Source of the DNA: Escherichia coli | GTDB lineage: Bacteria; Pseudomonadota; Gammaproteobacteria; Enterobacterales; Enterobacteriaceae | Strand: one strand, 5' to 3' | Assembly: GCF_003334815.1 (NCBI RefSeq) | Contig: NZ_QOWO01000065.1 | DNA length: 8,395 bases | Shown: positions 1 to 3,942 of the stretch, in pieces | How positions within the stretch are numbered: the first letter of the stretch is position 1 | Layout: the number at the start of each line of letters is the position of its first letter | Position numbers and translations under genes: made by a program | The notes under the pieces: model-generated | Databases searched by the model: none | Seen by the model: the letters and a program-made list of their open reading frames with translations, nothing else | What the model was told of the DNA's origin: nothing

Positions 1-77
1 GAAAAACGAGTATTTTTAGTCATCCTGTTTACCTCTTTCTCAGGGAGTTTAGTCTCCAGGATTTCCGGGGCGGTTCA
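1..77 (-). mobile_element. Terminal end of an IS3-family insertion sequence (IS629/IS1203-like); the element continues beyond the window start
   Basis: The minus strand of 77..1 reads TGAACCGCCCCGGAAATCCTGGAGACTAAACTCCCTGAGAAAGAGGTAAACAGGATGACTAAAAATACTCGTTTTTC. This is a TG-initiated terminal repeat of the IS3-family type, followed about 55 nt later by an ATG (22..20) opening MTKNTRF, which I recall as the OrfA N-terminus of IS629-type elements. Only 7 codons lie in the window, so the identification rests on recall and needs an ISfinder comparison. Confidence 0.55.
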
Positions 78-229
78 CTGCGCTGAAATTTCTTTTTTTC
101 ATTGGAGCACCTGTGTTGTTCTGAGGTGAGCATATCACCTCTGTTCAGGTGGCCAGGTTCGGTGCACCACTACACTGTGAGCGAGAGCTAGGTAAAATTT
201 TTATGTTAATAAAATGGATCTGAGTTAAA

Positions 230-250
230 GCCACCTGCGATGCAGGTGGC
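230..250 (-). terminator. Candidate intrinsic terminator hairpin downstream of tpsA
   Basis: Perfect inverted repeat GCCACCTGC-GAT-GCAGGTGGC (9-bp stem, 3-nt loop), 46 nt downstream of the tpsA stop codon (TAA at 299..297 on the minus strand). On the minus strand it is followed by CTTTAACTCAGATCCATTTTATT, a weak U tract, so it may act more as an RNA-stabilising hairpin than a strong terminator. Confidence 0.4.
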
Positions 251-296
251 TCCTGATATATTATTAGACTGAATAATGCTATCTACAATTATCAGA

Positions 297-1538: not shown

Positions 1539-1592
1539 ATTAATCCTTGTGTTAATAACTTTTTCCGCGTTTTATTTTTATTACCCCTCCTT

Positions 1593-3326
1593 TTAAAAGT
1601 TTTTAGTATAGGAAATCCAAAACTTATTCTTTAACTTGCTCTCGTATTGTGTATTTGAAATTGTAAGTGGTTTAGCCCACTGAATTGAAAGCGTTCCCGT
1701 ATTATCTCTATATATACTGCCACCGATACCTATAGACGATAGCTTTTGCTTGTTTTTAACATCAATCACATTACCACTCTTTATTTTATTATTCCTGTTT
1801 ATATTTCCCGTGGCAAAATCATAAAATATATTCAAATTAGCACTGATTCCATTTCCAATATTTTGAAAGTTTCTGGATAACTCACTTGAGATTACGTTTC
1901 CCGTATCGAGGAAGTGTTTATCTCCACTAAAACCTCGAACACCGTTAACGCCTCCGACAATTAATTTCTGTGTTGCATCAAGATTTCCATTTGCGAACAA
2001 TCCACTGGTTCTAACAGATAATAAATAGTCCTTAACTAAAGGTAAATTATATGCTAATTCATAATTCAGGATTACTTTATGTTTGTCCGTTTCTCTAATA
2101 TCACTACCATTCCAGAAAACAGAAGCTTTATCTTTGTATGACATTTTGCCAAGAGTTGCGCCAAGATTAAAGTATGTGTAGCCATATGAATTAAAATTAA
2201 TGTTAGATTCAAGGTTTATGTAAATATCATTATACTGTTTGCGTCCTTTTTTTCCGGCGAAGGAAAAAAAGGATGAGTAATTGTCAACCATCTCTGAACA
2301 TTCGATGCCTGAAACTATATCAGTATATAAATGATTACTTCTATAAATAGGATATGTGACTCCTAACTCTATACTATTTGCATATCCCTGAAATCTACTA
2401 TCCATATAAAAATACTTATAGTCAAGTCTTGATGCCTTTATCCAAGGTTGCAAGCCATAACTTGTTGGAGTGGCCGTATATTGAACTGCGCCATTACTGA
2501 GTTCCCCTTTGTCGGCAGAACCAGCAACATTGAATGTTAATTTGTCACCGACTTTAAATGGTGAGTATATATATCCACCGATATGGTAACGTTCTTTGCC
2601 AATAGCGTCGTTACCGTAATTATCAAACTGGATATAACCGCCATGGTTAATTATATCTGCTGACTTTATATAGACGGATGATGTCCCTTGAAATTCTCCA
2701 GGATACAATGTGATGTTACCTTCAAATCCAGGTAATTCATTAAGAATGTGTGCTAAGCGATCAAATTCCTTCGTTTTTATTACTTCGCCTTTTTTTAAAT
2801 AGCGTTCAGCTATCTTTATTATATGATTGTTTTGAACACGGGAATTGTTATCTAAAATGATTTTATCAAGTCTTCCTTGATAGACATTAAATTTTACATG
2901 TCCATTATAAAAATCTTGCGGAGGAACAACTACGTTTACTAACATAGCCCCCTCTCTTTTTAAAGCCGCTGTGAGATTTTGACTTAAGTTTTTTATTTCA
3001 TCAAAGCTCACAAGGGTATTTATATAAGGTGCTACTATCTCAGTAAATTTTTCTTTTCTGATTTTAACGCTATTTTCCTTAAAATAAATTAACTCAATGT
3101 TCTTAAGAAGGATTTTTTCATAGTGTTCATTTTTATGTCCCGTCTGGAGCTCGGCTTCATTATATTCACCTTTCGATAAAAAATTATTTTTCTTAATGTT
3201 ATACCTCTCGGATTTATCATTTTGATTGCTTATAATGCCGCTATTTAAAAAAGATAAAGCAGCTTTTGTCTCTGTCGACAGAAACATTAGAAACATTAAA
3301 AATGCTATGTTTTCGTATTTCATCAC
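1593..3326 (-). CDS. Two-partner secretion outer-membrane transporter (TpsB; ShlB/FhaC/HecB family, Omp85 superfamily)
   Basis: 577 aa, a typical TpsB length. N-terminal signal peptide. POTRA-like segment (LVNVVVPPQDFYNGHVKFNVYQGRLDKIIL). Conserved Omp85/TpsB loop-6 motif VRGF (GGVNGVRGFSGDKHF). Beta-barrel-like alternating aromatic pattern and a C-terminal Phe (..WISYTKNF). The annotated start is GTG at 3326; the adjacent ATG at 3323 is the more likely start. The gene is followed 54 bp later by tpsA, giving the B-then-A order seen in shlBA/hpmBA-type operons. Confidence 0.85.
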   Translation of the reverse strand: MMKYENIAFLMFLMFLSTETKAALSFLNSGIISNQNDKSERYNIKKNNFLSKGEYNEAELQTGHKNEHYEKILLKNIELIYFKENSVKIRKEKFTEIVAPYINTLVSFDEIKNLSQNLTAALKREGAMLVNVVVPPQDFYNGHVKFNVYQGRLDKIILDNNSRVQNNHIIKIAERYLKKGEVIKTKEFDRLAHILNELPGFEGNITLYPGEFQGTSSVYIKSADIINHGGYIQFDNYGNDAIGKERYHIGGYIYSPFKVGDKLTFNVAGSADKGELSNGAVQYTATPTSYGLQPWIKASRLDYKYFYMDSRFQGYANSIELGVTYPIYRSNHLYTDIVSGIECSEMVDNYSSFFSFAGKKGRKQYNDIYINLESNINFNSYGYTYFNLGATLGKMSYKDKASVFWNGSDIRETDKHKVILNYELAYNLPLVKDYLLSVRTSGLFANGNLDATQKLIVGGVNGVRGFSGDKHFLDTGNVISSELSRNFQNIGNGISANLNIFYDFATGNINRNNKIKSGNVIDVKNKQKLSSIGIGGSIYRDNTGTLSIQWAKPLTISNTQYESKLKNKFWISYTKNF

Positions 3327-3630
3327 TTTTAAATTTTCAGATATTCACAATCTCATTATGGAGAACTTGTTTTTTTTGAGTCTGCTTGCGACCCTGACAG
3401 GTGTCAATAATATTTTATTTATCATGCTTATTATTTTATACGGATTAATTCTTCTTCTTATTTTTCGACATACTATAAATCTTCTGTTTTTTCTATTATT
3501 TCTTTTGTGTGGTCATTTTGCTAATTTATATATTTATAGTTAAAGTTATTAATTTCGCCAAAAGCAAAAAAAATATAAACCTCATTCATTTACAGCAAAA
3601 ACAAAAGTTATTGATTATGTAGTGACAATC
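3327..3630 (-). promoter_or_regulatory. Extremely AT-rich upstream region of tpsB (presumed promoter; candidate H-NS-silenced region)
   Basis: About 300 bp of very AT-rich, homopolymer-rich DNA between the tpsB start and the point where tssC homology ends. No -35/-10 pair could be assigned confidently by eye. The AT richness and the position upstream of a horizontally acquired operon suggest a xenogeneic-silencing target (inference). Confidence 0.3.
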
Positions 3631-3942
3631 AAGCTTATAAAGCCCCGTCCATGCTGACTCAACTTTCTGAAACTCAGTTGCATGCATAATCAGACTAAGC
3701 TGCTCAGACATCAGCTTATCAATATCTGCAATTCGCTTTTCAATACTACCGATTAAATCACTGTTAATGACTAAAGAACCACTGGCAACTTCACCAAGAA
3801 AATTATTAACCTGCAATTTAAATCTGTTTTTTTCAGAATCCTGTCTTACAACCCTAGTATTATTTATAATTTCTTCAAGACAATCATCTGTAGCATACTG
3901 TGTTTCAGTCTGCCCTAATGTTGATGTCATTGTCATGTTCAC
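3586..3942 (-). pseudogene. tssC: Type VI secretion sheath large subunit TssC (VipB/ImpC), N-terminal fragment only (truncated after about 100 codons)
   Basis: The translation contains the conserved TssC N-terminal motif (..LSLIMHATEFQKVESAWTGLYKL; compare the VipB-type ...HxxxFQxxESAWRGL). Homology ends at about 3631 and the reading frame then runs 14 unrelated codons (DCHYIINNFCFCCK) into AT-rich DNA before a stop. The start (GTG at 3942) overlaps the tssB stop in a GTGA arrangement. Full-length TssC is roughly 500 aa, so about 80% of the gene is missing. Confidence 0.8.

Follow-up and report, generated by a model that had tools for sequence, protein, structure and literature searches.

What truncated the tssC gene in the plasmid locus analysed here, and was its neighbouring secretion operon involved? 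The locus is an 8,395-bp stretch of Escherichia coli DNA (in the following, the window), which corresponds to contig QOWO01000065.1 (GCA_003334815.1) in reversed orientation. This stretch is mosaic: the dead remnant of a type VI secretion system (T6SS) cluster, including the truncated tssC, lies beside an intact type Vb, or two-partner secretion (TPS), operon, tpsB-tpsA. The original prediction, made from the letters of the window, held that acquisition of the TPS module had deleted the 3′ part of tssC together with the downstream T6SS genes, possibly with the help of an insertion sequence (IS) of the IS3 family. Our results point to another agent. Most likely, tssC was truncated by IS91, and neither by the TPS module nor by the IS3-family elements. 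Judging from the junctions, the truncation point probably marks the far end (pseudo-ter) of a unit of 3.96 kb (positions 3630-7589) formed by one-ended transposition of IS91. The features of this unit and its right-hand border are as follows.

3630-3936, minus strand: tssC stub, nucleotides (nt) 1-307 of 1479; begins with CAAG (3630-3633, plus strand), the proposed IS91 pseudo-ter
3939-4415, minus strand: tssB, intact, 158 amino acids (aa), above the TIGR03358 cut-off
4416-4666, unstranded: native T6SS upstream flank, homologous to intact relatives up to 4666
4667-5831, unstranded: earlier IS91 cargo; begins with CAAG (4667-4670) and holds two 182-bp repeats, an 88-aa open reading frame (ORF) and, beside terIS, a fragment of an arylsulfatase regulator gene
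5832-7589, plus strand: IS91; terIS CGAG at 5832, orf121 at 5920-6285, tnpA at 6285-7370, oriIS end at 7589
7590-7652, minus strand: N-terminal remnant of a 3′-5′ exonuclease gene of the IncFII backbone; its native CGAG (7590-7593) adjoins oriIS

Among intact clusters, the nearest is a 15-gene T6SS on the Salmonella Newport plasmid pSNE1-2010K-2159 (pSNE1). Its alignment with the window begins at 3630 and runs rightwards at 99.5% identity, and there is none to the left of 3630. The abrupt end of TssC homology, predicted at about 3631, was thereby confirmed and mapped exactly to 3629|3630, after nt 307 of tssC. The TssC model TIGR03355 was matched only at positions 3-87 of 473, with a score of 69.6 (cut-off 271.5), and a 118-aa ORF (3586-3942) runs from the stub into the TPS-side DNA. 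TssB is complete (score 163 against a TIGR03358 cut-off of 97), and a protein identical to it adjoins full-length tssC in intact clusters. What remains of the 15-gene cluster is tssB and 21% of tssC, so that the core T6SS set (tssA-M, hcp, vgrG) is incomplete in the window. No further T6SS gene was found on the complete sister plasmid pJNE25-005_2, a 71-kb IncFII conjugative plasmid that is the sole near-complete counterpart of the window among 5426 complete E. coli genomes (99.6% identity over positions 1-3859 and 4354-7341). Lacking 13 of the 15 genes and 79% of tssC, the stub is unable to form a sheath or a machine and is non-functional.

When 800 bp of intact tssC, centred on the breakpoint, were used as a probe against the complete E. 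coli genomes, 158 of the 159 matching records spanned the breakpoint. The only broken record was pJNE25-005_2, which carries the TPS module. The 41-mers across 3629|3630 and across 174|175, at the other edge of the module, were present in all 15 other E. coli loci with identical TpsA or TpsB; the exception was one locus (L013) in which tpsB is broken. The 3629|3630 joint is common to every fetched E. coli contig with a complete tpsB and represents one historical event. Neither microhomology nor an IS end, inverted repeat or duplication was found at this joint. As for candidate IS ends or inverted repeats within 3600-3629, the only match was a 7-nt one (TGTAGTG, 3618-3624) to the terminus of an IS911-like element, in the wrong orientation and with about one such match expected by chance.

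It was previously shown that IS91 forms a bottom-strand circle, starting at oriIS and ending at terIS with the cleavage site 5′-CTCG, that it inserts beside 5′-CTTG or 5′-GTTC and rarely CTCG, and that termination often fails, whereupon DNA past terIS is co-mobilised (PMC13181058). In one-ended products of IS801, a member of the IS91 family, the first four bases on the transposase-sense strand are GAAC, CAAG or a related tetranucleotide (PMC3189936). In the window, IS91 sits 2.2 kb to the right of the tssC joint, with terIS facing the T6SS stub and with orf121 and tnpA on the plus strand. Three nested left ends can be read on the transposase-sense strand: CGAG at 5832 (terIS), CAAG at 4667 and CAAG at 3630 (tssC nt 304-307). 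In the fetched loci, the flanks of seven independent IS91 oriIS ends start with CAAG, GGAC, GAAC, CAAG, CGAG, CAAG and CGAG.

Two further junctions of the same IS91 lie within the window. At 4666|4667, the uninterrupted T6SS relatives L003 and L028 have GAAC exactly at this point, and their mutual homology extends about 200 bp further. The segment 5669-5831 is present in many plasmids of enterotoxigenic E. coli (ETEC), with the match ending at 5831, which is the terIS boundary. At the right-hand end, the uninterrupted exonuclease gene of pMB7671_3 reads CCTTTCGAG|AAACACC, indicating that the CGAG at 7590 is native. The 7589|7590 joint occurs in one piece in 2 of the 5426 genomes, both of this lineage, while in ordinary IncFII plasmids (among thousands of IncF plasmids) the oriIS of IS91 adjoins GAAC, 1.55 kb away from the exonuclease CGAG. 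A fourth junction was found in L013 (position 9082; window 2442|2443), where a foreign block starting with GAAC is joined to tpsB directly before a native CAAG at 2443; the tpsB sequence from 2443 is CAAGGTTGC. This foreign block encodes an AAA_16 NTPase and carries a PapB-like gene, and no IS91 was seen within the available 9 kb.

Might the CAAG at the tssC joint be a coincidence, with tssC nt 307 joined to the tpsB upstream region by IS-independent illegitimate recombination or spontaneous deletion? The joint, having neither microhomology nor an IS end, would suit such an event, and so would the CAAG itself, a single four-base coincidence with a chance of about 1% that was spotted post hoc. 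CAAG, GAAC and CGAG together occupy 0.8% of the positions on the relevant strand of the intact cluster, however, and four junctions in one small region conform to the IS91 rule with a common orientation (2442|2443 in L013, 3629|3630, 4666|4667 and 7589|7590), which makes a chance origin of the whole set very unlikely. At two of the four, moreover, the target tetranucleotide is visible in uninterrupted relatives. We therefore regard IS-independent joining as improbable.

One-ended transposition of IS91 would explain the locus in three steps. Rolling-circle replication would run from oriIS (7589) towards terIS (5832) and, when termination fails, would copy onward to a tetranucleotide resembling a target or cleavage site. 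In the first step, which is well supported, IS91 with about 1.16 kb of earlier cargo would have inserted at the GAAC about 250 bp upstream of tssB on a plasmid with a complete T6SS. In the second, replication would have read through the cargo, the promoter region of the T6SS and tssB into tssC, copying its nt 1-307 and stopping past the CAAG; this step is suggested by the CAAG at 3630 and by the orientation of the element. The left end of the unit would then have come to lie against the upstream region of a resident tpsB-tpsA operon. The third step would have brought the oriIS end against the native CGAG of the IncFII exonuclease gene, as the joint itself shows.

Two routes to the present arrangement can be envisaged. 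In route (a), the unit would have been imported from a T6SS plasmid like pSNE1 and an IS91-linked rearrangement would have followed, so that a full T6SS was never present at this position. In route (b), the T6SS and the TPS operon would have been co-resident, an intramolecular copy of the unit would have inserted on the upstream side of tpsB, and the remaining T6SS would have been lost by recombination between the two copies in direct orientation. Route (b) is plausible because the IncF plasmid pRHB11-C13_2, which has an intact T6SS, shows the order T6SS, IS91, toxin-antitoxin genes, repA. It may have been the T6SS fragment, and not the TPS module, that was transported.

We also compared plasmids of the TPS lineage (pJNE25-005_2, L012 and L014) with pSNE1. 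Near-identity (at least 98%) was seen only in the T6SS stub, in pemIK and, in L014, in the gene of a serine-protease autotransporter; the other common stretches showed 76-92% identity. The autotransporter gene encodes an S6-family protein of about 1370 aa and is shared at 99% (L014 19059-21230 versus pSNE1 40013-42183), which points to recent exchange between the IncFII plasmids of the TPS lineage and the IncI1-like pSNE1. An adjacent YkgJ-type cysteine-cluster gene is likewise common to the IncFII plasmids of the lineage and pSNE1, at 91%.

The same CAAG could also be read as an insertion target. In that case, an IS91-family element would have inserted at the tssC CAAG and delivered the TPS segment, with CAAG being the target beside its oriIS end. 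CAAG is indeed a preferred IS91 target, and insertion would occur immediately to its left on this strand. Yet the sequence left of 3630 (GATTATGTAGTGACAAT) is unlike the oriIS end of IS91 (AATTCCTATCGAT), no IS91-family transposase was found on the TPS side, and the remainder of tssC is absent. These features make IS91-borne delivery of the TPS module highly improbable.

Several observations weigh against one-ended transposition as the cause of the truncation. No empty site was recovered for the TPS-side flank (two search patterns gave 0 matches among the metagenome contigs of the Joint Genome Institute), and for this reason the target tetranucleotide of the second step is not visible. A plasmid representing the stage after the first step, with IS91 and cargo upstream of an intact T6SS, was found neither in PLSDB nor among the contigs with an identical TssB. 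The sequence left of 3630 is the upstream region of tpsB and not the rest of the exonuclease gene, which excludes a simple single insertion and requires at least one further event. IS91 itself is reported to end its one-ended products at such tetranucleotides, but the data considered here come from IS801 (PMC3189936). Finally, the tnpA of the window now has a 65-bp deletion (7336-7341) relative to the pJNE25-005_2 copy, which shortens TnpA from 395 to 361 aa, so that the window's IS91 copy is probably no longer autonomous.

The arrival of the TPS module itself, as favoured by the original prediction, has to be weighed against the sequence on the other side of the joint. The remaining features of the window are listed below.

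1-77, minus strand: left end of an IS629-like IS3-family element; terminus TGAACCGCCCCGG at 77, orfA start at 23; runs off the window
78-174, minus strand: 97-bp left-end remnant of an IS911-like IS3-family element; terminus TGTAGTGGTGCACC at 174, orfA ATG near 102
175-296, minus strand: 3′ flank of tpsA with the likely operon terminator hairpin at 228-252, from fold and conservation; 175-199 is lineage-specific
297-1526, minus strand: tpsA, 409 aa, TPS domain and short β-helix, a "mini-EtpA" (PF05860, TIGR01901, EtpA match)
1593-3323, minus strand: tpsB, 576 aa, outer-membrane transporter of the Omp85/TpsB type (Pfam POTRA_2 and ShlB)
3324-3629, minus strand: AT-rich tpsB upstream region, presumed promoter, 25% G+C; 3507-3629 found only in this lineage
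7687-8234, minus strand: toxin-antitoxin genes yacB/yacA, part of the IncFII backbone; next comes repA, outside the window

No RNA family of Rfam was matched in the window.

The prediction had relied on base composition, with about 23-27% G+C in sampled lines of the TPS DNA versus about 55% for the T6SS remnant or the IS91 and toxin-antitoxin region. This contrast was not observed. The TPS segment (175-3629) has 34.0% G+C and the T6SS stub 37.7%, which equals the value of the whole intact pSNE1 cluster, and only the 306-bp tpsB upstream region is as low as 25.2%. The remainder of the window (4670-8395) has 50.5%. Both the TPS module and the T6SS stub are thus AT-rich islands, and the G+C content changes at about 4670 rather than at 3631.

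The prediction had also placed the terminus of an IS3-family element at 77, about 150 bp from the module. The terminus is there, but the gap is not a spacer. It contains an IS911-like end whose terminus TGTAGTGG was placed at 174 (orfA start near 102), and thousands of matches annotated as IS911 or ISEc52 cover window positions 78-184 at 88-93%. Since 78-174 belongs to this end, the edge of the TPS module is at 175, and the element ending at 77, which we take to be IS629-like from its terminal sequence, does not touch the module. This element cuts the IS911-like remnant at 77|78 and arrived later. In pJNE25-005_2 it is about 1310 bp long, with a programmed-frameshift transposase and inverted ends, and it is flanked by AAG and CTG, i.e. 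there is no target duplication, which indicates that it took part in a rearrangement. Consequently, it tells nothing about how the TPS module arrived. The left edge of the module was made by IS3-family activity and is separate from the tssC joint. The same nested IS629-like|IS911-like joint was found on the ETEC4085 plasmid, a heat-labile toxin (LT) plasmid of porcine ETEC (L024 12001-12115; window 60-174, 94.8%), where homology ends at 174 and eltAB, encoding the heat-labile toxin, lies beside the block. ETEC plasmids thus have this nested-IS block in common while its neighbours differ.

How do these results bear on the idea that the TPS module arrived, perhaps together with an IS3-family element, and by its insertion or by IS3-mediated adjacent deletion eliminated the downstream T6SS genes along with the 3′ part of tssC? 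The module is compositionally foreign to the backbone (34% versus 50% G+C) and is flanked by IS elements in the window and in relatives. The gene order of pRHB11-C13_2 makes a full T6SS at this position plausible. In addition, no record with an intact T6SS carried TPS DNA, and no tssC broken at the same point was found without it, as this idea would lead one to expect. On the other hand, the ends of the two IS3-family elements (174 and 77) are on the far side of the module, whereas the tssC joint has no IS hallmark and its tssC side obeys the IS91 rule in the correct orientation. With the supposed contrast in composition gone and no target duplication at the IS629-like element, we consider the arrival of the TPS module an unlikely cause of the truncation. 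The secretion content of the locus is mosaic as described, with a T6SS reduced to a stub beside an intact type Vb operon, but a swap brought about by the TPS module is unsupported, and the causal order of the original prediction is probably wrong or at least unproven. One-ended transposition of IS91 accounts better for the tssC joint, and the locus as a whole is ordinary plasmid mosaicism by a known mechanism, in an unusually readable form.

We next consider the TPS operon in its own right. It is intact in the window and in most of the fetched contigs of the lineage, where tpsB precedes tpsA by 66 bp in the same orientation. TpsA matched the TPS domain PF05860 at residues 24-274 (E = 1.4e-29) as well as TIGR01901, and its translation has a hydrophobic N-terminus and the NPNG motif (LVNPNGIM). 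Over its full length it aligned with residues 51-456 of EtpA, an adhesin of ETEC (PDB 8vba/8cpk; E = 2e-92, 46% identity). TpsB has precomputed Pfam matches to POTRA_2 and ShlB, and CdiB structures were matched at E = 1e-7; its best match in PLSDB was EtpB, with 27% identity over the full length. TpsB is thus predicted to export a 409-aa EtpA-like β-helix protein.

An 11-bp G+C-rich hairpin (228-252) lies 45 nt after the tpsA stop codon; the enclosing fold has -29.4 kcal/mol (z = -5.3), and the hairpin is conserved in the relatives L020 and L021. A consensus terminator scan did not call it, its T-tail being weak, and a promoter scan gave no enrichment of sites over shuffles. Only nine TpsB homologues were found in a collection of 5.8 billion proteins, and the TPS DNA had no match in PLSDB and only pJNE25-005_2 among the complete E. 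coli genomes. L020 is an IncFII contig that also carries genes for dispersin and the Aat transporter (84% DNA identity, homology over 217-3437), L021 is an unplaced contig (86% DNA identity, homology over 200-3506), and L022 and L023 are plasmid contigs with the gene for the STb enterotoxin (41% protein identity). In all three contexts the flanks of the operon are unrelated to those of the window. TpsA has 408-413 aa in relatives with 41-91% amino-acid identity, and the ratio of nonsynonymous to synonymous substitution rates (dN/dS) was 0.09 for tpsA and 0.19-0.22 for tpsB. Because of the span of homology, the retained hairpin, the uniform length of TpsA and the low dN/dS, the operon is, as far as its sequence tells, a complete, self-contained and selected unit with a naturally short exoprotein. 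A recently truncated etpA was also considered; the length of TpsA in relatives, the conserved hairpin and the dN/dS of 0.09 rule it out.

Small EtpA-like TPS systems are not described in the papers found, and the two RefSeq protein accessions are mentioned in none of them. The operons may form a "mini-EtpA" family, with an exoprotein of about 410 aa and a highly divergent transporter and without a glycosyltransferase, on virulence plasmids of the ETEC, enteroaggregative E. coli (EAEC) and STb type. Such an exoprotein might serve as a secreted adhesin of minimal size, or it might modulate EtpA-type interactions with the host or with flagella. Given that EtpA is a vaccine candidate, a secreted protein homologous to its N-terminal domain could be relevant to work on serology and adhesion.

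Additional observations concern the decay of the T6SS stub and the cargo of IS91. In pJNE25-005_2, a 295-bp segment (15858-16152) substitutes for most of tssB and the start of tssC (window 3860-4353), and the stub is further decayed there than in the window. The segment is bounded by the inverted repeats GGGGCTCCGTGGGAATTTCTGCGA and TCGCAGAAATGCCCACGGAACCCC, looks like a miniature inverted-repeat transposable element, and gives rise to a 186-aa chimeric ORF annotated as a sheath-domain protein. The related IncFII plasmid p2010C_5028-3 (L027) lacks both the TPS operon and the T6SS genes and has a microcin B17 operon joined at 4597, within the T6SS upstream flank; microcin B17 genes also occur beyond the TPS side in the lineage contigs L012 and L039. 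Within the cargo, a 182-bp element is present in two copies (4712-4893 and 5433-5614) that are 93% identical, each with a strong hairpin (GCGCCCGCAATGAC...GTCATTGCGGGGGC), and it possibly represents a small mobile element or repeat. A search with the segment 4640-5860 matched about 1000 plasmids, 600 of them from Klebsiella and most at 99% identity or more, presumably due to this element. The 88-aa ORF (4933-5199, minus strand) has a signal-peptide-like N-terminus, corresponds to the conserved hypothetical protein WP_032342288.1, matched no NCBIfam model, and travels as IS91 cargo.

Taken together, the locus offers a clean natural example, at single-base resolution, of how IS91 read-through moves and truncates its neighbours on E. 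coli virulence plasmids, and of an intact, conserved mini TPS operon next to T6SS debris. Genes annotated as T6SS sheath genes on such plasmids are hitch-hiking debris and not evidence of a secretion system. We also put forward, tentatively and as a possibility rather than a probability, the combined claim that tpsB-tpsA represents an uncharacterised mini-EtpA family under purifying selection and that the locus is a natural record of three nested one-ended transpositions of IS91. If the three nested events are real, IS91 shuffles fragments of secretion-system operons between virulence plasmids.

How does the locus compare with known systems? Its T6SS part belongs with the clusters of the pSNE1/EAEC 042 type: the identity to pSNE1 is 99.5% across tssB, nt 1-307 of tssC and the 250 bp of flank upstream, and the chromosomal T6SS of EAEC 042 and the O104:H4 outbreak strains is about 90% identical to a pSNE1 tssB-tssC probe (L003 19601-20400). 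The same probe showed 91-95% identity to clusters on many E. coli IncF plasmids. The window differs from all these clusters by the loss of 13 genes and of 79% of tssC.

With one-ended transposition as described for the IS91 family (including IS801, IS1294 and ISCR elements), the locus shares intact element ends, cargo on the terIS side with the nested left ends CGAG, CAAG and CAAG, and an oriIS set against a target-native tetranucleotide without target duplication. It departs from it in that the left half expected of the target gene is missing, so that more than a simple insertion is required, and in that the donor and the empty site were not recovered. Moreover, the cargo here is a dead piece of a secretion operon instead of a gene for resistance or virulence.

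Finally, the tpsB-tpsA operon matches EtpBAC of ETEC in gene order (tpsB followed by tpsA) and in its location on a virulence-type E. coli plasmid. EtpA, however, has a long C-terminal repeat region and a solved chain of 1564 residues, whereas TpsA consists of the N-terminal secretion and β-helix domain only. EtpBAC includes the glycosyltransferase EtpC, while neither the window nor pJNE25-005_2 has a third gene or etpC. The tpsB-tpsA operon is thus a relative of EtpBAC and not a member of it.

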